Positions 4,233-60,106 of a DNA stretch of 64,000 nucleotides are shown in pieces. The DNA lies in the NCBI GenBank assembly GCA_039972775.1, contig JBDWMF010000011.1:102851-166850 (forward strand), read 5' to 3'. This DNA is from Erythrobacter sp. (lineage in GTDB: Bacteria > Pseudomonadota > Alphaproteobacteria > Sphingomonadales > Sphingomonadaceae). The first letter of the stretch is position 1, and each line of letters begins with the position of its first letter. The position numbers were made by a program, and so were the translations under genes. The notes under the pieces were generated by a model that saw only the letters and a program-made list of their open reading frames with translations, ran no database searches and was not told the DNA's origin.

Positions 4233-4685
4233 CTAAACCCACCGTCTGACAGAAGCTAAATAGGCCTGATAATCATCGCCAAATTTCGCCAGCAAGGCCC
4301 TCTCCTCAGGTTTGATCTGAACCCGACTAATAATCACAATGAAGCCGGTCAGGACTAGGGCGTTAAGAGGGTTACCAAGGTAGCAAGCGATCCCGCCAAG
4401 GATCAATAGCATGCCTAAATACATCGGATTACGGCTGAAGGAGAAGACCCCATGTTGAACAATCTTCACGGTACTTTCAGGGCTAAATGGATTGATCGTG
4501 GTTGCATGGCGCTTGAACTGAACGGCTGCGACGATCATCAACCCAGCACCCATTGCTACCAGAAAAACCGATACTAAGACTTGACCGGGAAACTGAAAAT
4601 TCGTCGCTGGCAAAAGCCCAGCAATGCCGACCATTGGAATGACAGACAGCAATGTAATGACGGGTGGCGGGACTTTGATGGCCAT
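4233..4685 (-). CDS. isoprenylcysteine carboxyl methyltransferase (ICMT)-family membrane methyltransferase
   Basis: 150 aa and polytopic. RNPMYLGMLL and the C-terminal E..L...FGDDY..Y...V.RW pattern are typical of the ICMT/PEMT family. Confidence 0.75.
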   Translation of the reverse strand: MAIKVPPPVITLLSVIPMVGIAGLLPATNFQFPGQVLVSVFLVAMGAGLMIVAAVQFKRHATTINPFSPESTVKIVQHGVFSFSRNPMYLGMLLILGGIACYLGNPLNALVLTGFIVIISRVQIKPEERALLAKFGDDYQAYLASVRRWV

Positions 4686-4732: not shown

Positions 4733-5122
4733 TTACTTATGATCAAGGACGGTTGATTTCATTGTGAATGCCAAAGCTAGCGTGGCCAGTCCGGGCAGAA
4801 TGACGCCAAAAAAGTCAGATTGCCAAATCCGGTCAAAGGGAAAGCCGCGATGTCCCCAAACTTGCAAATGAAACAGAGCATGCATGAACGGCCAGGCGGC
4901 TGCAAAAAGGGCCACGTCCCTCTTCTGATGATAGCTTCCGTAGAAAAGCCCTGCACCGCTTGCGAGAAAGGCGAAAGACACATCTCTTATGAAATGGGCA
5001 TTATACGGGCCCATCTCAGCCAATCCCGGTGTCACATCGTAAAATGTGACCGGGAAAACAAAGATGAAAGCTCCCGTTAGGATGAAGTAGCCCGCCAGAA
5101 TATATAGGATCAGTCTTTGCAT
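4733..5122 (-). CDS. hypothetical membrane protein
   Basis: I chose the start at MQRLILY (5122) so that the gene abuts the TetR stop at 5124. It has four hydrophobic segments. I recognise no family. Confidence 0.5.
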   Translation of the reverse strand: MQRLILYILAGYFILTGAFIFVFPVTFYDVTPGLAEMGPYNAHFIRDVSFAFLASGAGLFYGSYHQKRDVALFAAAWPFMHALFHLQVWGHRGFPFDRIWQSDFFGVILPGLATLALAFTMKSTVLDHK

Positions 5123-5123
5123 A

Positions 5124-5723
5124 TCAGCCTCCAGTGTCATCGCCATTACATAAGAAAAGAGTGAGCAATTCACTCAAGTCACTTTCCAAATCTGCCAGCT
5201 TTTGGTGCTCCAAAAACTCAAGCCCGATCATACTGCTGTAAAGTAGATTTGCCTTCAGCTTGCTTTGGTCAGCATTCAGACCAAGTTGAGCAAACAGCTT
5301 TGCAATATAGTCCAGCCTAGTGCTGTTGACCTTGCGCACACTCGATCGGACATTTTTGTCGAAACGGGACCAATCCCTGATCGCGGCCTCCATCATCAAC
5401 CCGCCATAATGAAGTCCGCCCGATGCGGCATCGCGGCTGTTAGTGATGCGCGCGCTAAGGTCTTGAAGCTTTTCTTTGGGGCTTAGCTCGCGCTCTTCAT
5501 TCCGATCGATAATTGCCTGCGTGCCCCATGCCTCCCAATGGGACATCATGGCCGACTTGAGCGCGGCTTGATCCTTAAAATGCCAATAGAACGACCCTTT
5601 GCTGACTTTCATCTCGCGGGCGATTTTTTCGATCTTAACGGCTTCCGGGCCGCCAGTGGTAAGCGCACGGAAACCGCCCTTGATCCAGTCTTCCCTAGTA
5701 AGCGCTTCTGTTTTCGAGGGCAT
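5124..5723 (-). CDS. TetR/AcrR-family transcriptional regulator
   Basis: 199 aa with an N-terminal helix-turn-helix, IAREMKVSKGSFYWHFKDQAAL. Confidence 0.9.
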   Translation of the reverse strand: MPSKTEALTREDWIKGGFRALTTGGPEAVKIEKIAREMKVSKGSFYWHFKDQAALKSAMMSHWEAWGTQAIIDRNEERELSPKEKLQDLSARITNSRDAASGGLHYGGLMMEAAIRDWSRFDKNVRSSVRKVNSTRLDYIAKLFAQLGLNADQSKLKANLLYSSMIGLEFLEHQKLADLESDLSELLTLFLCNGDDTGG

Positions 5724-5919
5724 TGTTCACCTGAGCACTGACCACCGCCCAATTGCGATGGAAACACCGCGACCCGTTTTCAGGCCTGCTTACGCATCAG
5801 GTAGTAAAGGTCGCATTCGGAGTCAATACGCCTGCGTATGGTGATTGTCTCAACGGATCTCTTTTAGGAGCTAATTCTAAGTGACCGCATGCTGAAGATC
5901 AGCCCAAATTAAAGGCCTA

Positions 5920-6122
5920 TCACTCCTTTGGGGCGTTGGCCTTTCTCAACGTCAATTTGGAGAAAGTTGCTTGAGCAAAATTGTTGTCTGTTCAATCTAT
6001 TTGACCGTATCCAGCTCACCGGATTCCACATCAACATCCACACCAATGTCGAGAGACTTCTGACAGCCCTCTTCATTCGCAATGCCAACATCGACCTATT
6101 TGACCGGCTCGCGCATGACCTC
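5920..6122 (-). pseudogene. composite relic: 3' end of a PL7 alginate lyase gene fused to an internal kdgK fragment
   Basis: The minus strand of 5920-5988 translates to DNNFAQATFSKLTLRKANAPKE*, compared with the C-terminus GDFAQATFSKLILGESSAPQE* of the intact PL7 gene at 39951. Segment 6007-6122 aligns by hand to kdgK 41434-41549 at about 108 of 116 positions. It translates to ...[30 protein letters not shown] with an in-frame stop. Confidence 0.65.
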
Positions 6123-6139
6123 TGGGGCCACCAAAGGTC

Positions 6140-6227
6140 GCCTCAAATGCAAGGAATTGGTAGACGCGCGTGCTTCAGGTGCACGTATTCGCAAGGATGT
6201 GGAGGTTCGAGTCCTCTTCTGGCACCA
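6140..6227 (+). tRNA. tRNA-Leu(CAG)-derived sequence, probably a 5'-defective pseudogene
   Basis: GGAATTGGTAGACGCG (D region), CGTGC-TTCAGGT-GCACG (anticodon arm, CAG), a long variable arm, GGAGG-TTCGAGT-CCTCT (T arm) and ...GGCACCA are all present. However, the 5' acceptor and D-stem bases do not pair properly, and the 3' acceptor strand is one nucleotide short. Confidence 0.5.
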
Positions 6228-6329
6228 TCTACCCCCTTTAAAGTTGTTACAAGAACCCCAGAATTCTGCCAAAAATGAGCAGTTTCTGATAGCTAATGTT
6301 CACCCCTGCTCGCCTGCAATCGCAAACTA

Positions 6330-6351
6330 TTGGGGGCCACGTTGGGGGCCA
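6330..6351. repeat. two direct copies of TTGGGGGCCA separated by 2 nt
   Basis: The copies lie at 6330-6339 and 6342-6351, between the tRNA relic and the integrase stub. A related CTGGGGCCAC sits at 6122-6131 on the other side of the tRNA. Confidence 0.5.
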
Positions 6352-6382
6352 GTCTAACTTGGCGAGTGCAGCTGGCCTCCAT

Positions 6383-6430
6383 ATGGCTTTGACCAATACG
6401 GCGATCCGCGATGCAAAACCCAGAGATAAG
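6383..6430 (+). pseudogene. N-terminal 16 codons of a tyrosine integrase (P4-like, DUF4102-type N-terminus), truncated
   Basis: It translates to MALTNTAIRDAKPRDK, the characteristic start of tRNA-targeting integrases. The reading frame then runs into IS6-derived sequence at 6431. Confidence 0.55.
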
Positions 6431-6564
6431 ATTGGCGGCCGGATAGGCGGCGTTCTGAATTGAAATAGCGAAAAGGACTGGCTGGTTTGCGGGGTCTTGG
6501 CATGCGCCCTGCCCTAGCTGATCACATGAGATCCGCTAGCCGGTGCATTTAGTCTGACAACACC
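6431..6564 (-). mobile_element. IS6-family remnant (heavily deleted; right end retained)
   Basis: ATTGGCGGCCGGATAGGCGGCGTTCTGAATTGAA matches the transposase 3' region of the copies at 39481 and 59815. It joins directly to the transposase 5' region (…GGACTGGCTGGTTTGCGGGGTCT…) and ends in CATTTAGTCTGACAACACC, the right inverted repeat of the intact IS at 23115-23133. Confidence 0.7.
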
Positions 6565-6650
6565 ATCCACTCTCATAATCCCTGCTTAAATAGACTGCTC
6601 AATTAGCCAATGGCCACTCGCCATAATACGCCTTTATCTTAGCTACTGCA

Positions 6651-8610: not shown

Positions 8611-8738
8611 CGGCGAAGAGTTGAAACGGTGGAATGGACCGGCGGATTTACGTCGTCTGGGCATTGTCCGCGCCCTACCCGCTCAGCACAAACTTCAATC
8701 AGGTACATTTGGTCTGACAACACCGCTCTGACAGTGCC
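8611..8738 (-). mobile_element. IS6-family right-end remnant plus an extra orphan inverted repeat
   Basis: 8611-8724 aligns with the transposase 5' end and right inverted repeat of the intact IS (…GTCTGGGCATTGTCCGCGCCCTACCC…CATTTGGTCTGACAACACC). It is followed by GCTCTGACAGTGCC (8725-8738), the right-end type of the copies at 39907 and 60106. Confidence 0.65.
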
Positions 8739-13684: not shown

Positions 13685-14105
13685 CTACTGATTTTGACAT
13701 TGGTAACTCCATGTGTGGTTGGACGCTGATCGTATATTGAATCATACCCCTTGCGCCAAGAAGCATGAACAACATCGTTGTTTTCAATATCTGCGTCTCG
13801 CCAAGATGCGGCAAATAGATCGACTTAGTCTCGTTCTCAGCCACCTTTTCCCATTCCTCGGTTTGTTAGCATACCCATAAAGTCCCATCCACAGCATCCA
13901 AATCCGACCGCAGCAAAGACAAATTTCGGTTCTCTTAGATTTTGCCGACAGGTCACTACTGCGCTTTGTAAGTTGGATCCGGGCAAGGACACGCGTGCCA
14001 GTAAGGCCAAGTCTGCGCGAACGTTTGCGTCCCTATGACGTCAAGATTGCCGCTGACGGCACGTTCTGGGTCGTGGACGTAATGACGGCTTTCGGTAGCA
14101 GCAAG

Positions 14106-14276
14106 TTAGAAGCCGACGTTCCGCAATCGGCCCAGTAGAGGTCGAAAGTCTCGTTCGTGTGAATGTCCGCTTCCACCCCCAATAACGGGTGCTCAACGGT
14201 AGCACGGCAAGTGCTCGAAGCTGGCTGTCAGCTAGCTAGGTTCTAGCGTTAGAAGCGGCTGTTCTGCCAACGACCC
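14106..14276. repeat. imperfect 28-nt direct repeat pair with an inverted partial copy between them
   Basis: TTAGAAGCCGACGTTCCGCAATCGGCCC (14106-14133) and TTAGAAGCGGCTGTTCTGCCAACGACCC (14249-14276) match 21 of 28 by hand. GAATGTCCGCTTC at 14161 is a partial inverted copy. Confidence 0.4.
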
Positions 14277-14458
14277 AGTTGCAGCCATTCAGGGGGCCGA
14301 CCACGAGGTACTTAAGGATGGTGAACTGAACGTCCAAAACTCAAAGCCTGTGCTCCACCCATCCACCTAGCAGCAGATCTTATGTAACTTTTGCCTCAAC
14401 TTGCGCGAAAGCTTCTTCATACGCCGCCTAAAACAGGCGCGCACGCTGCGAGGAGAAA

Positions 14459-15313
14459 ATGATGACTAACAGGCTTAAATCCATTGTGATGCTTTGCATT
14501 CTGCCCGCGCTCGCCGGTTGTTCAACAATTGAGCGCTTGGCCATTCCAAAATCTGACCTCATCTCGACTGAGCTCCTCGAATCCGGCTCCCAAAGTCAAA
14601 TCTCGCATCAAGCTTGGGATGCATTTCTGCAGAACTATACTGAGCTTGGGGACGATAATATTGTTCGGGTCAATTATGCGGCGGTGAGCGAGGAAAACAA
14701 ACAAAAGTTGGAAACCTATATCCAGCAACTGAGCGGGCAGGACACCTCTCTACTCACCCGCGATGCGCAGCTAGCTTATTGGATTAACCTGTATAATGCG
14801 CTGACCGTTTCTGTCATACTGGACCATTATCCGGTGAAGTCGATCCGCAATATCAGAAATGGCCTAACGGATTTTGGACCATGGAATGAGAAGCGTGTTG
14901 AAGTGAACGGGCGCGAGCTCAGCCTGCATGATATTGAGAATGGCATTGTCCGCCCGCTGTGGCCTGATGAGCCGCGCTCGCATTATGCTTTGAATTGCGC
15001 GGCTATTGGTTGCCCCAATCTTGCGCAAACGGCCTATACTGCGGACAATATTCAGCAACGCCTTCAAGAACAAGCGGTTCTATATGTGAACAGTCCGCGC
15101 GGTGTTTCTTTGGCGGCTGACGGCGGGCTGACCATCTCCAAAATCTACAGTTGGTACCGCGGCGATTTTGGTGGATCGGAAACCTCGACAATTAGTCATT
15201 TGCGCGAATATGCCGCCCCTGATTTGAAGCAGGCACTGGGGCAGTCCACCAAGATTGATCGCTACATTTACGATTGGTCGCTGAATGATACCTCGACAAA
15301 TGTGCAGCCCTAA
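14459..15313 (+). CDS. DUF547 domain-containing lipoprotein
   Basis: It has the lipobox LPALAGC. YWINLYNALTV...LSLHDIENGIVRP...HYALNCAAIGCPNL is the DUF547 signature. Confidence 0.8.
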   Translation: MMTNRLKSIVMLCILPALAGCSTIERLAIPKSDLISTELLESGSQSQISHQAWDAFLQNYTELGDDNIVRVNYAAVSEENKQKLETYIQQLSGQDTSLLTRDAQLAYWINLYNALTVSVILDHYPVKSIRNIRNGLTDFGPWNEKRVEVNGRELSLHDIENGIVRPLWPDEPRSHYALNCAAIGCPNLAQTAYTADNIQQRLQEQAVLYVNSPRGVSLAADGGLTISKIYSWYRGDFGGSETSTISHLREYAAPDLKQALGQSTKIDRYIYDWSLNDTSTNVQP

Positions 15314-15364
15314 TCTGCTATAACTCAGCTCGCTTGGGCCGAGCCTACTGCCACCCGACAGCCG

Positions 15365-16318
15365 CTAAACAGTGCAGCTCGCGCCGCCAAGGACACAGAA
15401 GCGCGCGCAATGCGGGTGGTTGAGCTTAACGTCAGAGCTAGCCTCCTCCAAAGTTGCCCCTAAGTCGAAATCGCTTTGATACGGCAAAAGCGTGCAAGCC
15501 GTGACTCGAGGCGATGCTTCACCTTTGCGCTTCACTACCATACGGCTGTTGGCGCACATCAAGCTTTGCGGAGCGACGTCCAAAACGCTCCAACAATGCG
15601 TGCTGATCTCGGCAATATCGGCATCTGTGTCCATCTGCGGGAACAGGATTAGCTGCGCAGGATCAAGGGCATCAATCGGCAATCTGTATTTGGCAAACAG
15701 GTTTGTAAACCCGGCGCGGGCGGCAGAGTCTTTCTCATCGCCAAAATGCCGCCCAGCCACAGCGATATTGAATCCGTTTTGGGCAAGCCATTTCAGCCCG
15801 TCTATGGCCTTGTCCCAGCTGGGCCCGCGTTCTGCCTCGTGAACTGATTGAGAATAGTGATCGAGGCTCACCCGAATGGTCATCTGAGCGCAATTGAGCT
15901 CCAGCAATTCTTTCTCAAGCCGGCGCATTGGGCGCATGGCGTTGGACAGCACCAGCACATCAAAACCGCGCTCAAGGCAAAGGCGCAATATCTCAATGAT
16001 CTGGGGGTTCATAAATGGCTCGCCCCCGGTAAAGGCGATTTCGCGCGTCGCAAGGCTGCTCTCTGCAATCTCATCGAGATAGGTTCGAACCTCTTTGAGT
16101 GTCAGATAGACGAGCGCATCGTTTTTGGGTGAGCTTTCAATATAGCAGGACTTGCATGCCAGATTGCACAATGTGCCCGTGTTGAACCACAATGTTTCGA
16201 GTGCCTCCAACTTTACCGAAGCTCGCTCTTCACCCTTTGCTGTCACCAAGGGATCAGAAAACTTCTTGGGCGTCATCGGCAAGGTTTCTTGAAGCGCAAA
16301 TGGAGATTGATCGTTCAT
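15365..16318 (-). CDS. radical SAM protein with a Cys-rich C-terminus (ArsS-like)
   Basis: It has the CNLACKSCY (CxxxCxxC) cluster motif and the C-terminal HPHCARFCVLGGASC. The genomic context matches the ArsS-type neighbourhood. Confidence 0.8.
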   Translation of the reverse strand: MNDQSPFALQETLPMTPKKFSDPLVTAKGEERASVKLEALETLWFNTGTLCNLACKSCYIESSPKNDALVYLTLKEVRTYLDEIAESSLATREIAFTGGEPFMNPQIIEILRLCLERGFDVLVLSNAMRPMRRLEKELLELNCAQMTIRVSLDHYSQSVHEAERGPSWDKAIDGLKWLAQNGFNIAVAGRHFGDEKDSAARAGFTNLFAKYRLPIDALDPAQLILFPQMDTDADIAEISTHCWSVLDVAPQSLMCANSRMVVKRKGEASPRVTACTLLPYQSDFDLGATLEEASSDVKLNHPHCARFCVLGGASCTV

Positions 16319-16372
16319 TAATAAGGTTCCTCGAGAACACGACTGTTTTGGTTACAAGAACATAGGCGGCAT

Positions 16373-17059
16373 TCAGGAAGGTTTCTCCAATCCCATTTCA
16401 TTCAAAAGCCATGGCCAAAGCTTTAAATCTTCGGGAGTATCGCAATCTGACAAGGGCTCCAACAGCAAGGGCTCCACTCCCATTTTCTCCAACCGAACCA
16501 GGGTTTCGGGCAAGACCTGATCGGTACTCCATTGCATGTCGGTAAAAAGTTGCGGCATCGGCTTTCGCATCCCGATGAGATAATAGCCGCCGTCAAACGC
16601 AGGTCCGATCACGACCGAGTGTGTCGCCAATCCAGCAATGGCAGCATGGACATGCTCTAAACTAAGATCCGGCGTATCTGATCCGAAGAAGATTGCTGGC
16701 GCATCTTCAGTAAATGCTAAAAGGCGCGAGGAAAGATCGCCATCCGCCTGCTGCTCTAACGTAGCAGCACTTCCCAACCAGTTGGTGAAAGCGCGTTCAG
16801 TTTCGCCAGTGTAAGCCACGGTGACGGGACAACCCGTCATCACCAATTTACCAAAAATTTGTTCGGCCAGTCGGCGTTGGATGTTCGCTGCTTGGACTGC
16901 ACCGACAGCGGGAATCAATCGAGTTTTGCACTCCCCAGCTTTTGGGTAGCGGACGAACAGTACAAGGCGCGGTAAGGATGAAATGGGCGTCTTCTTCTCA
17001 TGGCTTGGATCAACCGGCTTCACGTCTCGAACCCGCTCTAAACCTTGTTGAGCGACCAA
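16373..17059 (-). CDS. DUF2064 / TIGR04282-type putative glycosyltransferase
   Basis: LVLFVRYPKAGECKTRL...GSDTPDL...GPAFDGGYYLIG...WSTDQVL...L.DCDTPEDL matches the DUF2064 pattern. Confidence 0.8.
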   Translation of the reverse strand: MVAQQGLERVRDVKPVDPSHEKKTPISSLPRLVLFVRYPKAGECKTRLIPAVGAVQAANIQRRLAEQIFGKLVMTGCPVTVAYTGETERAFTNWLGSAATLEQQADGDLSSRLLAFTEDAPAIFFGSDTPDLSLEHVHAAIAGLATHSVVIGPAFDGGYYLIGMRKPMPQLFTDMQWSTDQVLPETLVRLEKMGVEPLLLEPLSDCDTPEDLKLWPWLLNEMGLEKPS

Positions 17060-17901
17060 TCATAATCATAACCTGCCACACTTTCAGCATCCTCTAGCAG
17101 CACGGCAGCTGGCCCAATCGCGTATTCGCGAGCATGATCCAAGACCGCTTGGACAGAGCCCCAATCGTCTTGATACCACTCGTAGATGTTGGAGGCGATG
17201 ATTGAGCCAGGTTTTCCGCCAAAGCCGCGAGGATGATTGACATAGGCTGACGCAGCCTCTTCCAGCATGGCTTCCAATTTCGCTCCCGTATAGGCTCGAG
17301 CGGCTAGGTTGGGGCATCCAATCGAGGCGCAATTGACCGCATAGTGTATTCTCACATCTTGCCATTCGGGCCGCAAAATATCGTGCTCAATATTGTCGAG
17401 GCTTAGCACGCGGCCGCCCACTGTCACCGCATCATCTTTCCATGGCCCCGATCCAAACAACCCAATGTCACGGATGGAATCGAGCGGTAAATTCTCAAGA
17501 ATGATTGCCACGGTCGCAGCGTTGTAGAGATTGACCCAAAAGGCGAATTGTTCGTCGGCGCCAAAGTCCTCAATGGCTATGGCTTGCATCGCATTGAGAT
17601 AGGTTTTCAGTGCATCTTCGGCTTCGCCCTTCATCCGCTTGTAATCGACCAGATTCACGCCGCTAGCCTCCTCTTTCACATATTCTTGCAGCAAAGCGTC
17701 CCACTGCGAATGGTCGATGCTTGCGGTCGAATTTGAATTTGTAGTGAAACTTTCTTCTTCCAAACTTCCTGCTCCTGATGCGCCGCATGCGGCCAAAAGT
17801 GCGGTGGCAGGCAAGGCGCCCAGCAAAGTCCGCCTTTGCATATTCAGATGGTTTGAGTGCCCTGTGAATGCTGTGGGTACCGTATGTTGATGGCCGCGCA
17901 T
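17038..17901 (-). CDS. DUF547 domain-containing protein (second paralogue), secreted or lipoprotein
   Basis: FWVNLYNAATV...LSLDNIEHDILRP...HYAVNCASIGCPNL. The likely start is MQRRTLLGALPATALLAACG at 17841. Its 3' end overlaps the start of the downstream DUF2064 gene by 22 nt. Confidence 0.8.
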   Translation of the reverse strand: MRGHQHTVPTAFTGHSNHLNMQRRTLLGALPATALLAACGASGAGSLEEESFTTNSNSTASIDHSQWDALLQEYVKEEASGVNLVDYKRMKGEAEDALKTYLNAMQAIAIEDFGADEQFAFWVNLYNAATVAIILENLPLDSIRDIGLFGSGPWKDDAVTVGGRVLSLDNIEHDILRPEWQDVRIHYAVNCASIGCPNLAARAYTGAKLEAMLEEAASAYVNHPRGFGGKPGSIIASNIYEWYQDDWGSVQAVLDHAREYAIGPAAVLLEDAESVAGYDYDWSLNKV

Positions 17902-17989
17902 AACAAATCCTCTTCCGAACTGGGGTCAAAACTATATTCGCGCACTCAGCAGAATTGTTACACTTATTTTCATTCACCAAGCTGCGGTG

Positions 17990-20035
17990 TCATTCAGATG
18001 GGCGTCGCCCGAGCCACGCATTGCGACTAGCTTTGTCGAAGTCACCAAAGGCTTCCCGTGCAATCACATAAAGAATTTTACAGCCAGCCGCGAGTACACC
18101 GCCAATCGTGCCCGAGATTTTGGAGATGCCAACGCGCCTGCGATAATGCGTAGGACGTTCGCAGATCTTCATATTCATTTTGGCAGCACGTACCTGCATT
18201 TCGATAGTCCAGCCAAAATCACGATCCGTCATTTGCAGCTTTTCCAATGCGTCGCGGCGTATCGATCTGAAGGGGCCAAGGTCGGTGTAACGCACGCCCC
18301 AGATCAACCTAACCAAGGCGGGCGCGAGCCAGTTTCCAAACCGCTGCGGCATGCTCATGGCACCAGGCTCAATCTGTCCCAATACGCGTGAGCCTATGAC
18401 CATGTCGGCCTCTCCCGCCGCAATCGGAGCGATTAACCCGGCCGCATCTTCAGGAACATCGGACAAGTCAGCGTCCATAAACAGAATGATATTGCTGCTC
18501 TGATCGGCTACTGCCAAGCCCGCCAAGCAGGCAGCGCCATACCCTCTTTCTGGCTGCGAGACGAGGATCGCTCCCGCCTGCTTCGCGACCAAAGATGTCC
18601 GGTCTGTCGAGCCATTGTCCGCGACAATGATCTCGACAAACCCACCGGGATTGGCGCCTAAGATGCCGCGCACGGCATCTCCCACGGAGCTTTCTTCATT
18701 CAGTGCCGGAATTATAACCGAAACCCTTGGTTCAATAGCATCTCTTGTGCTTGCCTTTACTCGCCTCCGGGCCATTTTTTGGCGCCAGAGATCGTACAAA
18801 ATCGCCGTTCCGATCAGTGTCCATTGCGCATATTGCGCGACCGGATGAACCTCAAATTCGTTGAGCGTGAAGTCCTCCAAATTGAGCCCAGTCAGATAAG
18901 AAAGCGGCAATGCGGCGGAGGCGACATAGGGCCAGACCTCCTTGCGTCCGACTGCTAGAGGTAGCAACCACATTAGGTACCAAGTGTTGACCGCTGGAGC
19001 GAACAGCAAGATCACCCCAAAAATTGCTGCCAACGGAACTTCTTCGAAACTGCGCGACCGAGCATGCAGCCAAAATACAATGAGACCAGCGATAGCGAGC
19101 GCAGTCAGCCTTCCCCAGGTGGGGCCGAGGACAAGAAAAAGTGGCAGATATGCAATTGGGTTGAAATGCCAAGTGGTGGCAAATGTCTGAGTTGAATCCA
19201 GTCCGGCACCATGGCCTTGAAACACAAAAACTCCATAAAGCAGCAGCAATGTACCAATTGCGCTAAACAGTGCTCTTGGACGTAGCCGCAGCAATATCGG
19301 CCAAGCGGCCAGCGCCACCAGTTTGACGCCCGCAGCAAAAGCCAGAAGACATCCAGCCCATACCGGGTGACGCCTACCCGCAAGCACAGCTGCAAATATC
19401 ATCAAGCCCACAAAAATATCTGCATGCAGATGCAGAGTACTCTCCGCTACAACCAGTGGGTTCCATGCGAACAAAGCAACGCGATCAGCGCGATATTTAC
19501 GAAGCAGCAACGCACCAAGAAGGATAGAGGCGCAAGCGAATACTATTCGCAGGCCCAACTCATCCGTGCCAGAAAACAGGCTGGTGAATGCGAAGATTAT
19601 CTGGAGAACGGGCCCGTATATGGTCGGATATTGGGGGTAGTTTATCCATTCGAGCACGCCCTGCATCGCTGGGGGTATATTCTCATCTCCCACAAAATCT
19701 GCCGGCGAAATTCCATAGGGTGTTCCGGTCTCAAGAACGCGCCACCCATCCCAAATGAAACGGTAATAATCGTCTTCAAAAACGGTCTCGCCAAATAATG
19801 CGATACCATGGCCGATAATCGCGATCGCCAGAAGAATCACAGGCTTGATCTGAGCAGAACGCCAAAGCAAGGCGCTGCTCATGGCGCTGCCGATAGTCAA
19901 TACGCTGACATAGGTGAGAACCGAGGGCGCCAATTCTCTGGACAAGATCGTCAGCGCAAGGATCGTCGCCAAATAGGCCAGCGCCCCGCAGACCGCTTGG
20001 CTGCGAGACGCATTGGTTGAATCTGTCTCAGGCAC
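17990..20035 (-). CDS. fusion protein: ~430-aa polytopic membrane domain plus a C-terminal family-2 glycosyltransferase (TIGR04283-like)
   Basis: The C-terminus VSVIIPALNEE...IIVADNGSTDRT...GYGAACLAG...ILFMDADLSD is a GT-A/GT2 signature. The N-terminal half has more than 10 hydrophobic helices. Confidence 0.8.
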   Translation of the reverse strand: MPETDSTNASRSQAVCGALAYLATILALTILSRELAPSVLTYVSVLTIGSAMSSALLWRSAQIKPVILLAIAIIGHGIALFGETVFEDDYYRFIWDGWRVLETGTPYGISPADFVGDENIPPAMQGVLEWINYPQYPTIYGPVLQIIFAFTSLFSGTDELGLRIVFACASILLGALLLRKYRADRVALFAWNPLVVAESTLHLHADIFVGLMIFAAVLAGRRHPVWAGCLLAFAAGVKLVALAAWPILLRLRPRALFSAIGTLLLLYGVFVFQGHGAGLDSTQTFATTWHFNPIAYLPLFLVLGPTWGRLTALAIAGLIVFWLHARSRSFEEVPLAAIFGVILLFAPAVNTWYLMWLLPLAVGRKEVWPYVASAALPLSYLTGLNLEDFTLNEFEVHPVAQYAQWTLIGTAILYDLWRQKMARRRVKASTRDAIEPRVSVIIPALNEESSVGDAVRGILGANPGGFVEIIVADNGSTDRTSLVAKQAGAILVSQPERGYGAACLAGLAVADQSSNIILFMDADLSDVPEDAAGLIAPIAAGEADMVIGSRVLGQIEPGAMSMPQRFGNWLAPALVRLIWGVRYTDLGPFRSIRRDALEKLQMTDRDFGWTIEMQVRAAKMNMKICERPTHYRRRVGISKISGTIGGVLAAGCKILYVIAREAFGDFDKASRNAWLGRRPSE

Positions 20036-20068
20036 AGTTGCTTTGCCCGATGCGGCTATACTGATGGT

Positions 20069-20404
20069 TTAGACACCGAACCGCTGCCGCAAATAGAACA
20101 GAACAGCTTGACGGTTTTTGTCGTTCAGCTCGAACTTTCCATTCCGCACGGCCTGGGCGACCTCAGGTGCAGTCTGCCGGTTCAGCTTGCCGTTGTACTC
20201 ACATTTTTTGCAGGTGATGCGCTTGCGCACTTGCGATTTGCCGCGGCGTTCCAGACGATCAGCTTGTGAGACCTGTGAACCCGCGCTGGAACCGCTTCCA
20301 AAACCACCAAAGCCGCCTCCGCCACCACCAGAACCTGATGCGGCTGCTGGAGCGGACATCACGGCTAAGCCAAGCGCAGCCACTGTTATTATTACGTTTT
20401 GCAT
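20069..20404 (-). CDS. small secreted protein with a Gly-rich linker, hypothetical
   Basis: 111 aa. GGAGGA lies 7 nt upstream of the ATG. It has the signal peptide ...AVMSAPAAA, then SGSGGGGGGFGGFGSGS, then a basic C-terminal domain containing CKKC. Confidence 0.55.
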   Translation of the reverse strand: MQNVIITVAALGLAVMSAPAAASGSGGGGGGFGGFGSGSSAGSQVSQADRLERRGKSQVRKRITCKKCEYNGKLNRQTAPEVAQAVRNGKFELNDKNRQAVLFYLRQRFGV

Positions 20405-20486
20405 AGTTCTGATCCTCCGTCGAAATCGTTCTCAAACCTTTATTCGGATGTCCGGCAGAATTGGTTACAAAAAACTGACAACAAAC

Positions 20487-21044
20487 TTATGAGCCATAGG
20501 AGATTAACTGCTTGCGCTCGAGCAGACGCCCCCAGCTGTCATCATACGGATGAATGCTTTCAGTCGCTGCCCCCGCTTTATTTTGGAGCGGGCGCCCCTG
20601 ATTGTGCCAACCAAACAGGCCGTACTTCAAATTCACCACATCAGCGGCTCCTTGCGCCTTGAGTGCACTTTGGATTCGGCTAGCGAAATTGCTGGAACGT
20701 GCACCGACCGAGCAATAGAAAACCGCTGTCTTACCGCTTGCCAAAGTTCCATAGCTCGCCAAGAACTCCGCGGTCGGCATTTCCGGAGAAATACGAATTG
20801 CGCCGGAAATATGGCTGACCGCAAACTCATCCCCCGCGCGGGTGTCAAAGACGATATGCGAAGCAGGGTTCGATCTCGAAAGCTGTTCAGCAGAGATATG
20901 CGCCACCGACGGGGATTTCGCCGCAATACCTTGGTGCACGCCGACCAATCCATCTTCTGCATCCAACCACAGCGCGGCTGCCCCGCCAAGCAAGACTACG
21001 CCAACAATCGCGCTCAATCCAAGGTTTCGCAATCCAATACTCAT
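20487..21044 (-). CDS. membrane-anchored rhodanese-domain sulfurtransferase
   Basis: It has an N-terminal transmembrane helix, followed by ...FDTRAGDEF..SHISGAI... and the active-site loop FYCSVGARS. Confidence 0.8.
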   Translation of the reverse strand: MSIGLRNLGLSAIVGVVLLGGAAALWLDAEDGLVGVHQGIAAKSPSVAHISAEQLSRSNPASHIVFDTRAGDEFAVSHISGAIRISPEMPTAEFLASYGTLASGKTAVFYCSVGARSSNFASRIQSALKAQGAADVVNLKYGLFGWHNQGRPLQNKAGAATESIHPYDDSWGRLLERKQLISYGS

Positions 21045-22009
21045 TATGTCTTGCCTCGTTTTGTAAAAGGCCGAACCAAATAATCCCGCCAGTTTTCGAG
21101 TGGTTCATAGCCATCAATGCCGGTCGGATGAAAAGTTTCATCGGCGGGCATATGCTGCGTGCCAAAAATGCGGTCGTAGAAAGAGAAGAAGGAGCAGTAA
21201 TTTCGGCCCCAATGCTCAATCTCTCGGGAATGATGAAAATGGTGATAGATGTTGTCCGCTAATAAGTGGCGAAGCAGCGGCGGGAATGACAGCGCCGGAT
21301 TGTCCGAATGCATGTAATAATTCGAGACGAGGTAGAATGTCGTTAGCACGGCAACATAGCTCTGCGGGTTCTCAACAATCACAATGAGCGGCACTGTTAT
21401 GACCGCCAGATAGATCGCATCCTGCGCCCAGTGAGAATAGCTGCGCGCGGCGTTCATACCCTCGATTTGGTGATGGATAGCGTGCAACCGCCACAATATT
21501 GGAAAGTGATGCAGGGCGCGATGGAGCCAATATTCAAACAGACCAACCAGCAACATAAATAGAACCGGAAACAAGACTAATAGAGGTCCCAAGTCCCGCG
21601 GTTGGAATAATGGCCTAGTCTCAATCGCAGTCAGGCCAATAAATACAGCAGATTGGAGCACAATGGCGATCACGATAGCGGTTAGGCCATAAAGTAACCC
21701 CTCCGCATAACGCGCGCGAAAATCGCTAAAACCCAATTGCCGCCACTCAAACAAAGCAAACAACAAAACCACCCCGATGTAGGAAAATACGCCATTGGCC
21801 AATGCGGCTGCAAAGCCAGCCTCAATGAAGCTTGCGCCATATTCTTCTAACCGAAAACCAATCTCGAATTGAATCCAATCAACAAAACGCAGCAACCCTT
21901 CAGCAAGGCCCAGCAATATGCCAAAGGTGAGCACAAACCGGAGCGTGCTGCGGCCCTCCACCGCCTCATCCGGCGGATTTGCATCGGTCCAATCCATTCT
22001 TTTAGCCAC
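21044..22009 (-). CDS. fatty acid hydroxylase / sterol desaturase-family membrane di-iron enzyme
   Basis: It has His boxes HRALHH, HAIHH and HHFHH. Its stop overlaps the rhodanese ATG as TAATG. Confidence 0.85.
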   Translation of the reverse strand: MAKRMDWTDANPPDEAVEGRSTLRFVLTFGILLGLAEGLLRFVDWIQFEIGFRLEEYGASFIEAGFAAALANGVFSYIGVVLLFALFEWRQLGFSDFRARYAEGLLYGLTAIVIAIVLQSAVFIGLTAIETRPLFQPRDLGPLLVLFPVLFMLLVGLFEYWLHRALHHFPILWRLHAIHHQIEGMNAARSYSHWAQDAIYLAVITVPLIVIVENPQSYVAVLTTFYLVSNYYMHSDNPALSFPPLLRHLLADNIYHHFHHSREIEHWGRNYCSFFSFYDRIFGTQHMPADETFHPTGIDGYEPLENWRDYLVRPFTKRGKT

Positions 22010-22113: not shown

Positions 22114-22213
22114 GGTGCTGTCAGTCTAATCGTAAATTGTCTCCGACTGGCGTAGATTGCCCTAGACTGGCCGGCTGAGACCTCAATTAAGTGCGATTGC
22201 TCTGACAGTGCAC
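22114..22213. mobile_element. MITE-like ~100-bp derivative of the IS6-family element
   Basis: The left 45 nt (GGTGCTGTCAGTCTAATCGTAAATTGTCTCCGACTGGCG) matches the left end of the IS at 22291. The right end, GATTGCTCTGACAGTGCAC, is an IS6-type inverted repeat. Confidence 0.6.
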
Positions 22214-22290
22214 AATAAATCATGGCGCGATCGATAGAGATGTAACATCCTCAAAACAAAGCCACTTGAGAGTTGACCTTGCCCTCCAAT

Positions 22291-23133
22291 GGTGCTGTCA
22301 GTCTAATCGCAACTTGTCTCCGATTGGCGCAGCTATGGCAAAGTCGAACTAGATTTAGGCAGCAAGATTTTGCCACTCAGCAAATGCGGCTGAGCGGCTT
22401 TCCTTGAAGGTTTGTCTGTCGACGAGGTGACGCTGCGAGTTGAAATGGTTGTGGATGTTGGCGTGAACGGAAGCGAACTTTTGCAGTGATTTCATTCGCC
22501 GGAACCGCTGCATAACACGCTCTTTTCGTCGGAACGGAAGGTGGCTATTTTCCGCTCGATTATTCTTCCAGCGACCCATTTCCTGCCTGTCCAGATTGCC
22601 AAGTTCACGCATCGCAGCAGGGTATGATTTGAGACCGTCAGTAACGATTTCTTCTGCTTGGCCGTGTCGTTTCAATGCCTTGCGTAGAAACTTAAACGCG
22701 GCCTTTTTATCCCGTTTCTTAGTGACATAGCTCTCGAGAATTTCACCTTCGTGGTCGACCGCCCGCCACAGATAATGGGTCTCGCCGTTGATCTTCACAA
22801 AGACCTCGTCAACATGCCAACGCCAGTTTCTAAACCCGCGCATCCGGCTAATCCGCTGGCGTTTGATATCGGCCGCAAACAGCGGACCAAACCGGTTCCA
22901 CCACATTCGAACAGTTTCATGACTGATGTCGATGCCCCGTTCCGAAAGCAGGTCCTCGACGTTTCGCAATGAGAGAGGAAACCGGACATACAACATCACA
23001 ACCAAGCGGATCACTTCAGGTGATGAGTTGAAATAACGAAACGGACTGGCTGGTTTTGCGAAGTCTGGGCATGGCCCCTGCCCTACCCGTTCGTGCCTGA
23101 TTTTCAATCTGGTACATTTAGTCTGACAACACC
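22291..23133 (-). mobile_element. intact IS6-family insertion sequence (843 bp)
   Basis: The terminal inverted repeats are GGTGCTGTCAGTCTAATCG (22291) and the reverse complement of CATTTAGTCTGACAACACC (ends 23133). It has a single transposase ORF. I see no 8-bp target duplication. Confidence 0.9.
22355..23107 (-). CDS. IS6-family (IS26-like) DDE transposase
   Basis: 250 aa. ...FRYFNSSPEVIRLVVMLYVRFPLSLRNVEDLLSERGIDISHETVRMWWNRFGP...WHVDEVFVKINGE..YLWRAVD..G... aligns in layout with IS26-type transposases. Confidence 0.9.
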   Translation of the reverse strand: MKIRHERVGQGPCPDFAKPASPFRYFNSSPEVIRLVVMLYVRFPLSLRNVEDLLSERGIDISHETVRMWWNRFGPLFAADIKRQRISRMRGFRNWRWHVDEVFVKINGETHYLWRAVDHEGEILESYVTKKRDKKAAFKFLRKALKRHGQAEEIVTDGLKSYPAAMRELGNLDRQEMGRWKNNRAENSHLPFRRKERVMQRFRRMKSLQKFASVHANIHNHFNSQRHLVDRQTFKESRSAAFAEWQNLAA

Positions 23134-23134
23134 A

Positions 23135-23269
23135 TTGGCAGGCACAGCAGGCATGTTTGGTGAGGAAGAATTGGGCAAGAAAGCAGCAGCTTTCGAGCGC
23201 GCGTTAAGATCCGGTGTCGGCGATGAAGTGCGCGAACAATTAGCGCGGGAATTGCTGGATGCTGCTTAG
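23135..23269 (+). pseudogene. 3' fragment of an Hpt-like (histidine phosphotransfer) gene cut by the IS
   Basis: The frame opens directly at the IS boundary: LAGTAGMFGEEELGKKAAAFERALRSG...LLDAA*. This resembles the H-x-LKGSAG-x-G helix region of Hpt domains. The phospho-His codon itself is missing. Confidence 0.4.
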
Positions 23270-32296: not shown

Positions 32297-33676
32297 ATGG
32301 AACTTAATCGGCGGAAATTTCTCGCCTCTGGAACAGCGGCAGTCGGATTGGCTGGAATGTCGGCTGGATGCAGCACCGCAGGCTTTGGCCACAAATCATC
32401 ATATTTGACGCAAGTGCTCGCGCCGCAGAACCAAAATACCGTTTTCCATTGGGTCGATGTTGTGCTTCAACAAACGCGTGACCAGCGTGTCCCGCCGCCG
32501 CGCGCAGCCTATAACTACGCTGGGCCCATGCTTGCCGGCTTCCTAGCCGCAAACGCCATTTCACAGCGTTATCACGAGCCATATGGCCTCGGCGCAGCGC
32601 CAGCTGGAGCTGATCCAGAAGTCGCTTACGGCGTCGCTTTCGCGACCGTCGCTGCGCAATGTTTTGGCCAACCATTTATCTTGGAGCGCCGCGAATTTAA
32701 GAACCGCTTTGCCGATAGCGAGGCAAAGTCACTTGGCGTAGAATGGGGCCGCAAAGTTGGCATGTATGTCAACAAAATGCGCACACGCGATGGCGCGCAA
32801 CCGAGCCAAATTAACTACTATCACGGGCGTTATCCGCGCCGCAAAGATGCGCTCAATTGGAACCCAACCGGCGCGACCTACGGCGACAGTCTGGGGCCGC
32901 GGGTCGGTCATTATGATCGCGGGCTTTTCCCGGGCCTAGGCAAGGTAAAGCCTTGGACAATGACGCATTCGGAGCAGTTTCAGCCAGGAGAGTTTTACGA
33001 TCCTGCCAGCCCCGAATTTGCCAAGCAATATGAATATGTTCGCAAGATCGGCTGCGCGGAAAGCGCGATGCGTACCGAGGACGAAGCAGAGATAGCTGTA
33101 TTTTGGGAAGATGGCCCGTGGGGCATCACTCCGCCCGGACACTTTCTCTATATCGCTGTTCAAGTGATGCAGGGACGCGGAATGGACTTCCTAGACACTG
33201 CGCGCGCATTTGCCTTGCTTGGCATGACGCAAGGTGATGCGGCGATCAACGCGTGGAACTGCAAATATCAATACGATATTCTGCGTCCAGAAACTGCAAT
33301 CCGTTACCGCGCTGGTGAATTTGGCAATGCGGGCGTGACGCAGGAAAAGGGTTGGAAAAGCTATATCCCCACCCCCAATTTCCCAGCCTACACATCGGGC
33401 CATTCAACCTTTGGCGCAGCAGGCGCTGAGCTAACCGCTTTGTTGATCGGCACGGACAAAGTTACATTCGATCACACATCGCCTGACCTCAATGGCTTCC
33501 CCCAATTAGAGGGGCGCCGGCGCCGCTGGACCTCGCTTAGCGAAGCAGCTGAAGAAAACGGTATGAGCAGGCTTTATGGCGGAGTGCATTGGGAAATAGA
33601 CCACACCGCAGCAATGGATGCGGGCCGCTCAATCGCACGCCAAGCGTTCCAGCGCTGGTTCCAGCGGAGGGTTTAG
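32297..33676 (+). CDS. Tat-secreted PAP2-superfamily / vanadium-dependent haloperoxidase-like protein
   Basis: It has a twin-arginine signal, NRRKFLASGTAAV. The PAP2 motifs are KYQYDILRP (K-x6-RP), TSGHS and SRLYGGVHWEID (SR-x5-H-x3-D). Confidence 0.75.
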   Translation: MELNRRKFLASGTAAVGLAGMSAGCSTAGFGHKSSYLTQVLAPQNQNTVFHWVDVVLQQTRDQRVPPPRAAYNYAGPMLAGFLAANAISQRYHEPYGLGAAPAGADPEVAYGVAFATVAAQCFGQPFILERREFKNRFADSEAKSLGVEWGRKVGMYVNKMRTRDGAQPSQINYYHGRYPRRKDALNWNPTGATYGDSLGPRVGHYDRGLFPGLGKVKPWTMTHSEQFQPGEFYDPASPEFAKQYEYVRKIGCAESAMRTEDEAEIAVFWEDGPWGITPPGHFLYIAVQVMQGRGMDFLDTARAFALLGMTQGDAAINAWNCKYQYDILRPETAIRYRAGEFGNAGVTQEKGWKSYIPTPNFPAYTSGHSTFGAAGAELTALLIGTDKVTFDHTSPDLNGFPQLEGRRRRWTSLSEAAEENGMSRLYGGVHWEIDHTAAMDAGRSIARQAFQRWFQRRV

Positions 33677-39360: not shown

Positions 39361-39907
39361 GGAGTGCTGTCAGACTAATCACGGGCTTGTCTCCGATTGG
39401 CGCAAGATACCCTTTCCCAGAACTGGTTCAAACCACGGGATTTTGCCACTTAGTCAGTGCTACTGAGCGAGCGCTCTTGTAAGATTGGCAGTCAGATAGG
39501 TGGCGTTCTGAATTGAAGTGATTGTCGACGTTGGCATGGAGATATGTGAACTTCTGTAGTGATTTCATCCGCCGGAACCGCTGGATGACACACTCTTTTC
39601 TTCGGAACGGCAGATTGCTAAGTTCGCGCATGGCAGCTGGGTACGATTTGAGGCCGTCGGTCCAAAGCGATTCCACCACATCCGAACCGTCTCGTGACAG
39701 ATGTCGATGCCACATTCGGTCAGCAGATCCTCGACGTTTCGGAGCGAACGAGGAAAACGAAAATACAACATCACGGCCAAGCGGATCACTTCGGGCGAAG
39801 AGTTGAAATAACGAAACGGACTGGCTGGTTTGCGGGGTCTGGGCATGCGCCCTGCCCTAGCCTCATCCTCTTATCCGTCAGTTAGGTGCATTGGCTCTGA
39901 CAGTGCC
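39361..39907 (-). mobile_element. decayed IS6-family copy (internal deletions, frameshifted transposase)
   Basis: The left end ..GTGCTGTCAGACTAATC...GTCTCCGATTGGCGCA matches the intact IS. The ORF pieces 39565-39846 (…FRYFNSSPEVIRLAVMLYFRFPRSLRNVEDLL…) and 39428-39715 (…GLKSYPAAMRELSNLPFRRKECVIQRFRRMKSLQKF…) lie in different frames. The right end is CATTGGCTCTGACAGTGCC. Confidence 0.8.
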
Positions 39908-59694: not shown

Positions 59695-60106
59695 GGTGCT
59701 GTCAGACTAATCACGGGCTTGTCTCCGATTGGCGCAGGTTGCCCTTCCCCGTTCGACTCTCAAGCCATGAGATTTTGCCACTCAGTCAGTGCTACTGAGC
59801 GAGCGGTCTTGTAAGATTGGCGGTCGGATAGGTGGCGTGCTGAATTGAAGTGATTGTGGGCGTTGGCATGGAGATATGTGAACTTCTGTAGTGATTTCAT
59901 CCGCCGGAACCACTGGATGACACGCTCTTTTCTTCGGAACGAGAGAAAGAGGAAAACGGACATACGACATCACGACCAAGTGGATCACTTCGGGCGAAGA
60001 GTTGAAATAACGAAACGGACTGGCTGGTTTGCGGGGTCTTGGCATGCGCCCTGCCCTAGCCTCATCCCCTTATTCGTCAGTTAGATGCATTGGCTCTGAC
60101 AGTGCC
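59695..60106 (-). mobile_element. decayed IS6-family copy (larger internal deletion)
   Basis: The left end GGTGCTGTCAGACTAATCACGGGCTTGTCTCCGATTGGCGCA is near-identical to the copy at 39361. The ORF pieces translate to ...RKERVIQWFRRMKSLQKFTYLHAN...HLSDRQSYK and ...FRYFNSSPEVIHLVVMSYVRFPLSL. The right end is CATTGGCTCTGACAGTGCC. Confidence 0.8.

Follow-up and report, generated by a model that had tools for sequence, protein, structure and literature searches.

A 64,000-nucleotide stretch of Erythrobacter sp. DNA (contig JBDWMF010000011.1, positions 102,851 to 166,850; termed the window below) carries a compact cluster of eight genes, one of which encodes an enzyme of the radical S-adenosylmethionine (SAM) type that resembles ArsS. 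Judging from its sequence, we treat this enzyme as belonging to an ArsS-like sister family that lacks a curated model of its own, not as a member of the ArsS family TIGR04167. The cluster as a whole is, by sequence comparison, apparently a rare, cut-down relative of clusters that bear ArsM. Our best explanation, to which we give roughly even credence, is that the genes specify an arsenosugar-type pathway, in which a heteroatom would be adenosylated, a sugar would be activated by a DUF2064 protein, and the product would be transferred by way of polyprenyl phosphate to the envelope. The same explanation takes the locus to be a single co-transcribed unit made of two modules. The genes are as follows.

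14459..15313, plus strand: DUF547 lipoprotein "a" (PF04784, 88.6 bits; cut-off 27)
15365..16318, minus strand: radical SAM enzyme with a Cys-rich tail (Radical_SAM, PF04055, 75.7 bits)
16373..17059, minus strand: DUF2064/TIGR04282 protein, a CofC-like putative nucleotidyl or glycosyl transferase (PF09837, 93.5 bits)
17038..17901 (likely start 17841), minus strand: DUF547 lipoprotein "b" (PF04784, 91.7 bits; cut-off 27)
17990..20035, minus strand: multi-span fusion of 681 aa, joining a GT-C-like (GT87-like) glycosyltransferase (GT) domain to a GT2 domain (PF00535, 88 bits, residues 439-600)
20069..20404, minus strand: small secreted Gly-rich protein of 111 aa with a signal peptide and a TCKxC (CxxC) motif; no family match
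20487..21044, minus strand: single-domain rhodanese, predicted to be periplasmic (PF00581, 51.3 bits)
21044..22009, minus strand: membrane di-iron enzyme of the FA_hydroxylase (FAH)/sterol-desaturase superfamily, the first gene of the cluster (PF04116, 80 bits; cut-off 31)

Family calls were made above the Pfam gathering score, and equivalogs were judged by NCBIfam cut-offs. All eight open reading frames (ORFs) lie as the first-pass annotation described them, with seven packed on the minus strand and one converging on them. No gap among the seven minus-strand genes exceeds 148 bp, and there are one or two overlaps in addition. Base 21044 is common to the FAH and rhodanese ORFs, which gives the TAATG overlap already recognized. 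The 22-nt overlap reported earlier between DUF2064 and DUF547b exists if DUF2064 starts at TTG 17059, and becomes a 14-nt gap if the in-frame GTG at 17023 is used; the two genes are tightly packed under either start codon. For DUF547b, ATG 17841 is the likely start, and an identical protein is publicly called as 267 aa. DUF547a converges on the radical SAM gene across a gap of 51 bp.

The closest protein matches, at ~75% identity, are in Erythrobacteraceae. Because the identical gene order recurs in independent genomes, the clustering is not due to chance, and the lack of co-conservation that the first-pass annotation had named as refuting its reading is not observed. Scans of positions 13-23.5 kb of the window with Rfam and with consensus promoter and terminator patterns gave nothing above background.

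The first of the two proposed modules would face the envelope, and would comprise the FA-hydroxylase, the periplasmic rhodanese, the small CxxC protein, the GT-C::GT2 fusion and the DUF547 lipoprotein. The second would be cytoplasmic and would comprise DUF2064/TIGR04282 and the ArsS-like enzyme, presumably the minimal core of an "arsenosugar-type" system of the Sphingomonadales. Fuller versions of module 2 appear to add a TIGR04283-like GT2, an acyl-reductase-like short-chain dehydrogenase/reductase (SDR), an AS3MT/ArsM-type methyltransferase and a MerA-like reductase.

The radical SAM enzyme scores 62 bits against TIGR04167, for which the cut-off is 300, and the match covers model positions 3-149 only. 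At E<=0.01 it does not match the C-terminal domain DUF3641 (PF12345), against which the canonical ArsS of one metagenome locus (L102) scores 148 bits. On these grounds, membership in TIGR04167 by curated models was rejected. The first-pass annotation had named failure against ArsS-type models as reason to abandon its reading, and formally that is the outcome. The best NCBIfam match is to the Rv1681 family, at 92 bits (cut-off 380). Yet the CxxxCxxC cysteines (C51, C55 and C58) are present, and C255, C275, C304 and C308 do not vary in a MAFFT alignment made jointly with two sequences of canonical ArsS; the window enzyme also has C315, in a column that is not invariant. The terminal HCxxC...SC pattern, belonging to a set that runs MC...C...HCxxC...SC/U, is common to the window enzyme and canonical ArsS. 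Because the models fail while the CxxxCxxC and C-terminal cysteines match those of ArsS, we prefer the sister-family view. The core is 26% identical to the PGAP-annotated canonical ArsS of a Pseudanabaena plasmid, and the overall range, for the core only, is 21-26%.

The enzyme has a C-terminal, Cys-rich auxiliary-cluster domain, and an AlphaFold model of it (pLDDT 71) has a twitch/SPASM-type fold. The nearest solved structures are BlsE, SuiB, SkfB, MoaA and DesII, which are generic matches with a template modeling (TM) score of about 0.5. BlsE is also the best PDB match by sequence, and no ArsS structure was among the PDB sequence or fold search results. The family includes 210 cluster representatives at E<=1e-30, which public records name merely "radical SAM protein," and the window enzyme retains every family-invariant residue. 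HpnH, the adenosylhopane synthase, was considered as an analogue in mechanism: it is a radical SAM enzyme that adds adenosyl to a lipid and keeps that group on its product, as the window enzyme may, and both occur in a lipid-related gene context. However, the window enzyme scores 42 bits against TIGR03470 (cut-off 225) and has no hopanoid genes nearby, and is not a member.

Fusions within the family are informative about possible substrates. DUF2064 is fused to the radical SAM domain in P0122 and P0198, a calcineurin-like metallophosphoesterase (Metallophos) in P0121, P0123 and P0155, and an HD domain (HD_3/YfbR-like 5'-deoxynucleotidase) in P0125. The metallophosphoesterase and HD fusions, together with metallophosphoesterase neighbors in Rhodospirillales, hint at a nucleotide-type substrate or product. 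In the distant member P0254 (36% identity), the radical SAM domain is fused to an ArsM-like methyltransferase (NF008823, 193 bits), and the gene order is DUF547, the fusion, VTT, Pyr_redox and DUF2064::GT2.

A scan of one genome per species yielded 533 confirmed relatives of the radical SAM enzyme, of which the 80 best loci, at 54-75% identity, went into the analysis. Partners were counted with phmmer within 10 kb of the radical SAM gene. Gene calls at these loci were greedy longest-ORF calls, and the phmmer presence/absence results are independent of them. The counts are as follows.

DUF2064: 26/80 loci
MerA-like pyridine-nucleotide disulfide reductase: 24/80 loci
TIGR04283-like GT2: 16/80 loci
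NAD_binding_4 acyl-reductase-like SDR: 14/80 loci
FA_hydroxylase: 12/80 loci
metallophosphoesterase: 12/80 loci
ArsM-like methyltransferase: 11/80 loci
VTT/DedA: 11/80 loci
DUF547: 2/80 loci
GT-C fusion: 1/80 loci
rhodanese: 0/80 loci

The neighboring ArsM-like proteins keep the four cysteines of AS3MT/ArsM (in TDAC, YYGCG, SNCVINL and GECL). Their best NCBIfam matches, all below cut-off, are arsenite methyltransferases, and JGI and UniRef label them as such. FAH genes accompany DUF2064, ArsS and ArsS-like genes both in their 12 loci and on a Thiodictyon plasmid. DUF547 recurs beside DUF2064 and the radical SAM gene in distant Roseomonas and Roseococcus and in locus L002. A literature search found no publication that combines DUF2064 and "radical SAM."

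Plasmid p546-1 of Roseomonas haemaphysalidis (L085, 5055-16151) carries an ArsM-less relative of the system. Its order is TIGR04282, DUF547, a second radical SAM protein of 459 aa, a window-type radical SAM protein (58% identity), a PhnD/E/C-like ABC transporter and a metallophosphoesterase. A chalcone-isomerase-like protein, DoxX, DUF547, an FAD oxidoreductase and VTT are encoded on the opposite strand.

The relation of the window to ArsM-bearing loci emerges from a comparison of twelve clusters that contain the GT fusion. Five Erythrobacteraceae clusters (L004, L087, L135, L136 and L137) have a fuller form that runs FAH, small protein, GT fusion, DUF547, DUF2064 and GT2 genes, followed by SDR and ArsM on the opposite strand and then the radical SAM gene. 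L090 has this arrangement without the SDR, and FAH was not detected in it. The window and L001 (GCA_947488155.1) share a different form, consisting of FAH, rhodanese, small protein, GT fusion, DUF547, DUF2064 and radical SAM, and the arrangement from FAH to radical SAM in L001 is ~74% identical to that of the window. Both lack the GT2, SDR and ArsM genes of the fuller form and have the periplasmic rhodanese instead. Erythrobacter sp. W53 (L128, CP193502.1) has only FAH, rhodanese, small protein, GT fusion and DUF547. Further combinations occur in E. rubeus and in L130, in which a reversed rhodanese-FAH pair separates DUF2064 from GT2 genes, and L086 has the minimal form of DUF2064, GT2s and radical SAM alone.

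A neighbor-joining tree places L004 and L087 as the sister group of the window and L001, within a clade in which linkage to ArsM is common. Most simply, therefore, the ArsM-less form is a derived minority variant. The window enzyme is 74-75% identical to its ArsM-linked orthologues, and arsM itself, which is absent from the window, accompanies the orthologous genes of L004, L087, L090 and L135-137 as well as those of the 11 surveyed loci. The genome that encodes P0027 also has ArsM. None of the four rhodanese-containing clusters (window, L001, L128 and L130) has ArsM, and none of the six ArsM-containing clusters has rhodanese. This mutual exclusion is suggestive only (one-sided Fisher ~0.03 for the twelve clusters, uncorrected for phylogeny).

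The absence of arsM and other ars genes noted in the first-pass annotation holds, since tblastn across the whole 64 kb found no ArsM-like sequence and a Pfam scan of 39 window ORFs (9 cluster and IS6 proteins and 30 flanking ORFs) found no ars gene. VTT, MerA-like, metallophosphoesterase and PhnD-like genes were likewise not found in the window. The window form is probably a derived variant of an ArsM-linked cluster and not a system apart. The lack of arsM is also weakened as a mark of novelty because canonical ArsS clusters are often without an adjacent arsM.

On the Pseudanabaena plasmid, canonical ArsS comes after ArsR and, further along, VTT, a "mercuric reductase," ArsM and a second VTT. 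A Thiodictyon plasmid has GT2, a sterol-desaturase-family protein, ArsS and TIGR04282, with no ArsM nearby. Burkholderia plasmids carry ArsS; thioredoxin and CcdA; 5'-methylthioadenosine (MTA) phosphorylase, TIGR04283, TIGR04282 and an FAD oxidoreductase; a fusion of VTT to an FAD oxidoreductase; and DoxX. No ArsM was found near ArsS on these plasmids. The MTA phosphorylase gene is directly upstream of TIGR04283 and TIGR04282 (L133, 7302-9657; L132, 7326-9681). Metagenome locus L102 encodes a DPM-like GT2, a GT87-like membrane protein and DUF2064, followed by canonical ArsS with DUF3641. Because these ArsS contexts share the same accessory genes as those of the ArsS-like family, both radical SAM families seem to hold equivalent positions in one recurring system. 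In L102, the ArsS ORF (5489-6481) ends in "...GGGSS" and a stop codon, where other ArsS proteins have a final "SSC," which fits a selenocysteine-terminated "(seleno)protein" ArsS.

The window system can be set beside the ArsM/ArsS pathway of cyanobacteria. Likenesses are the CxxxCxxC motif and the aligned C-terminal cysteines, and the fact that window-type orthologues adjoin a four-cysteine ArsM-like protein, a MerA-like protein and VTT, as is found around Pseudanabaena ArsS. The differences are that identity is low and limited to the core, that TIGR04167 and DUF3641 are unmatched, and that the window is without ArsM, VTT and MerA-like genes.

The DUF2064 protein passes TIGR04282 (181.5 bits; cut-off 134) and is matched in the PDB by 3cgx (E 1.2e-22), a putative nucleotide-diphospho-sugar transferase. 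The names of TIGR04282 and TIGR04283, "arsenosugar biosynthesis glycosyltransferase," derive from gene context only. In relatives of the cluster, DUF2064 is directly followed by a TIGR04283-like GT2. That of L004 scores 158.8 bits against TIGR04283 (cut-off 182), and it has no counterpart in the window, where the only GT2 is the DPM/AglJ-like, GT-C-fused domain, which scores 43.6 bits. The earlier assignment of the locus to an ArsS/TIGR04282/TIGR04283 neighborhood therefore stands in part: DUF2064 is a true TIGR04282 member and the neighborhood is evolutionarily of the ArsS/TIGR04282 type, but the radical SAM enzyme is from another family and the GT2 is not TIGR04283.

The GT2 domain scores 124.7 bits against AglJ (cut-off 325) and passes no equivalog cut-off; dolichyl-phosphate hexose synthases and ArnC are also among the NCBIfam models that it resembles. 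By sequence it matches, in the PDB, DPM synthase 5mlz (domain residues 12-217), ArnC and GpgS. It resembles, at the sequence level, a polyprenyl-phosphate sugar synthase of the DPM/AglJ/ArnC type, fused to a GT-C-like domain. The N-terminal membrane domain scores 21.6 bits against GT87 (PF09594; cut-off 25) and has no PDB sequence match; its split homologue in L102 clears the GT87 cut-off at 32.7 bits. The conserved stretches picked by the locus search include EDDYYRFIW, an acidic motif in the first loop of this GT-C-like domain. Metagenomes often contain split homologues (GT2, processive GT2 and GT87-like), some with DUF547 ahead of them and many without radical SAM genes.

Three-component periplasmic glycosylation systems (GtrB/GtrA/Gtr-type, ArnC/ArnT, and DPM synthase with GT-C) share with the window the pairing of a GT2 with a multi-span GT-C-like protein, and the acidic EDDYY motif. 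The window differs in that the pair is fused in a single protein, the membrane domain is below the GT87 cut-off and no GtrA-type flippase is present. In addition, the fusion is embedded among genes for DUF547, the CxxC protein, rhodanese and FA-hydroxylase. The last of these scores 57 bits against OlsE (cut-off 475) and is not OlsE.

Signal and lipoprotein sequences are consistent with the earlier view that the DUF547 proteins, the rhodanese and the small protein face the periplasm. The lipobox is LAGC in DUF547a and LAAC in DUF547b, and the signal of the latter contains RR. All DUF547 members have a signal or lipoprotein sequence and an invariant Cys-x4-Cys-Pro motif. Residues invariant across distant members include R164, H166, C171, C176-P177 and the terminal YDW. 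DUF547a is 44% identical to the DUF547 protein encoded between TIGR04282 and radical SAM on the Roseomonas plasmid. An AlphaFold model of DUF547b (17038-17841) has a pLDDT of 84 and a pTM of 0.83, and a Foldseek search of this model against the PDB gave no match (all E>1, TM<0.3). The modeled fold seems to have no solved relative. The literature found on DUF547 concerns plants, protists or phages, and describes no bacterial function.

The small protein matches no family in Pfam or NCBIfam. Eight related loci encode it in the matching position, and TCKxC is invariant among them. Erythrobacter sp. W53 has two small CxxC genes (4903-5241 and 7471-7815 of L128) near its FAH/rhodanese/GT/DUF547 module, and the public gene call omits the in-cluster copy. 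The rhodanese has CSVGARS as its six-residue active-site loop, and is presumably periplasmic because it has an N-terminal signal or anchor sequence. Its best NCBIfam match is NF045521 ("rhoda_near_glyco"), at 90.5 bits, which does not pass the cut-off of 145. A homologue on a Calothrix plasmid lies in an unannotated and uninformative context.

ArsS adenosylates dimethylarsenite, DMAs(III), to DDMAA (PMC13598754; bioRxiv 10.64898/2026.04.29.721666). This reaction is the starting point for the pathway that we propose, all steps of which we infer from observed family assignments, gene associations, fusions and intact conserved residues. To our knowledge, it is not known how DDMAA is converted to ribosides and arsenosugar lipids, or what roles TIGR04282 and TIGR04283 play. 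The radical SAM enzyme would transfer a 5'-deoxyadenosyl radical to a heteroatom in the trivalent state, in the way that ArsS adenosylates DMAs(III). An MTA-phosphorylase-type enzyme might then phosphorolyze the 5'-substituted 5'-deoxyadenosine, giving a ribose-1-phosphate analogue, a step that we propose because of the dedicated MTA phosphorylase gene in Burkholderia. By analogy, that gene suggests how adenine leaves the ArsS product and which substrate DUF2064 uses. This protein, which has a CofC/MobA-like fold, would activate the ribose-1-phosphate analogue with a nucleotide, and the DPM/ArnC-like GT2 domain would load the activated analogue onto polyprenyl phosphate. After flipping, the GT-C domain would transfer it to an envelope lipid or glycan modified by the FA-hydroxylase. 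In the periplasm, DUF547 with its Cys-x4-Cys-Pro motif, the CxxC protein and the rhodanese may handle a thiol-reactive group. Because ArsM, SDR and the GT2s are missing from the window, the substrate there is presumably methylarsenic from elsewhere (made in trans or taken up) or something different.

Several points weigh against this explanation. The radical SAM enzyme fails every score-based curated ArsS criterion, and an hhalign profile alignment of its family with canonical ArsS (98.4% probability) spans the core alone, so that the argument for C-terminal homology comes solely from the MAFFT cysteine columns. About two-thirds of the family, in Rhodobacterales, Rhodospirillales and other groups, have housekeeping genes as neighbors and lack any arsenic-type partner. 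Those neighbors include zwf-pgl-pgi, gyrA, metZ, apaG and folE in Rhodobacterales and many Rhodospirillales, with at most an adjoining metallophosphoesterase. An arsenic role is thus unproven for the family as a whole. The entire 64 kb is without an ArsM, VTT, MerA-like or MTA-phosphorylase gene, and module 1 stands in Erythrobacter sp. W53 with neither radical SAM nor DUF2064 nearby. Finally, we know of experimental support in such neighborhoods only for ArsM and ArsS, and the roles given here to DUF2064, GT2, DUF547 and FAH are ones that we infer.

The exchange of ArsM for rhodanese might reflect a change of heteroatom. The rhodanese-bearing form could act on sulfur or selenium to produce a thio- or seleno-ribosyl envelope lipid, or the rhodanese could thiolate As=O to As=S. 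We consider this doubtful. The mutual exclusion described above favors it, as does the recurrence of thioredoxin, CcdA, DoxX and MerA-like reductase around ArsS-type genes, and canonical ArsS clusters of Thiodictyon and Burkholderia also lack an adjacent ArsM. The invariant Cys pairs of DUF547 and the small protein would fit a chalcogen or metalloid relay. However, the sample behind the exclusion is small and phylogenetically clustered, the rhodanese is predicted to be periplasmic whereas the radical SAM enzyme is cytoplasmic, and the FAH-rhodanese pair is found beside GT2s without radical SAM in L130 and L128. The close identity of the window enzyme to its ArsM-linked orthologues, with invariant residues intact, gives no sign of a changed substrate. 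A more specific proposal, which we regard as quite unlikely, is that the enzyme adenosylates sulfur or selenium species (or inorganic As(III)), that the Gtr-like fusion installs a 5-deoxy-5-heteroatom riboside on the outer envelope, and that DUF547 is a periplasmic Cys-x4-Cys carrier with a new fold. If true, chalcogen- or metalloid-ribosyl envelope lipids of marine Alphaproteobacteria would form a class not known before.

The two modules can also occur apart, as the W53 and L086 loci demonstrate, and split GT2/GT-C homologues are found in many metagenome loci without radical SAM. Together with IS6 copies and remnants across the window, which indicate rearrangement, these facts raise the possibility that the locus is an envelope glycosylation operon next to a stranded DUF2064-radical SAM arsenic remnant with little or no function. 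Such a remnant is unlikely, given that both genes are intact with all invariant residues present, and that conservation of the arrangement from FAH to radical SAM in L001 points to selection over decay. Moreover, the distant Roseomonas, Roseococcus and L002 loci place DUF547 beside DUF2064 and radical SAM, and the gene order of L102 links the modules independently. Alternatively, the cluster could carry out an ordinary envelope sugar modification, in which the radical SAM enzyme abstracts hydrogen from a nucleotide sugar in the manner of BlsE, DesII or AprD4, with DUF2064 making the nucleotide sugar and the GT fusion installing it. The structural and sequence matches to BlsE and its kin agree with this idea, as do the many family members without an arsenic-type neighbor and the phosphohydrolase fusions that suggest nucleotide substrates. 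Nevertheless, we judge it improbable, because the fold matches are generic and it leaves unexplained both the ArsS-like C-terminal cysteine pattern and the recurrent adjacency or fusion to ArsM-like, MerA-like and VTT proteins, a set common to canonical ArsS clusters.

The findings that are new here are an ArsS-like family without a curated model, the combination of a Gtr-like fusion with DUF547 and a CxxC protein, and a rhodanese instead of ArsM. Apart from ArsM and ArsS, this type of system is known at the annotation level only. A second ArsS-like radical SAM family, unannotated as such, is widespread in Alphaproteobacteria. The arsenosugar-type pathway provides a testable route, from MTA-phosphorylase-type cleavage through nucleotide activation by DUF2064 and a polyprenyl-phosphate GT2 to the GT-C domain. 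Natural variants with ArsM, and with rhodanese and no ArsM, exist in culturable genera and make comparative experiments straightforward. The FA-hydroxylase and the acyl-reductase-like SDR also link the system to lipid enzymes in marine Erythrobacteraceae. Acyl-ether arsenosugar phospholipids are reported from the surface ocean in a preprint, in which aerobic heterotrophic bacteria are their suspected source (bioRxiv 10.1101/2021.03.22.436501). Candidate loci for these lipids are the Erythrobacteraceae clusters of the full form, which have the SDR and FA-hydroxylases.

A Pfam scan of the window ORFs indicates that the cluster is surrounded by genes for sugar and alginate utilization, transporters and TonB receptors. 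Two other genes, each ~10 kb from the cluster on opposite sides, encode a PAP2/vanadium-haloperoxidase-like protein (32297-33676) and a small PEMT/ICMT-like membrane methyltransferase (4233-4685). Both were treated as unrelated because neither recurs near the clusters of relatives. Upstream of the convergent DUF547a gene is an ORF-free region of 774 bp (13685-14458). In tblastn, its first 130 bases weakly match (E 4e-5, 46 aa) a HATPase_c_3 protein of 901 aa encoded ~7 kb past the radical SAM gene in L001. This unrelated protein is the sole match, and no pseudogene remnants of cluster genes were found in the region, which may be a gene remnant left by rearrangement.

Two further features lie upstream of the cluster.

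22114..22152, strand not assigned: solo IS6 terminal-repeat remnant of 39 nt, between the insertion sequence (IS) and the cluster, 92% identical to IS positions 12-50
22280..23144, minus strand: complete IS6-family insertion sequence of 865 bp (transposase 22355-23107; NF033587, 191 bits; cut-off 125)

The complete element, 270 bp upstream of the cluster, is assigned to IS6 by its transposase and its 27-nt terminal inverted repeats (22280-22306 and 23118-23144). The first-pass annotation had placed IS6 elements at 22114-23133, directly upstream; IS6 sequence is indeed there, as a single complete element plus the remnant. Loss of the GT2, SDR and ArsM genes through IS6 was considered and rejected, because the IS flanks the opposite end of the cluster and the DUF2064-radical SAM junction is the same in L001. 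Degenerate fragments of the same IS6 (76-92% identity) are found at 39364-39859, 59695-60058, 6456-6566 and 8612-8724 in addition to 22114-22152, and this scatter suggests repeated IS6 activity and decay in the region.

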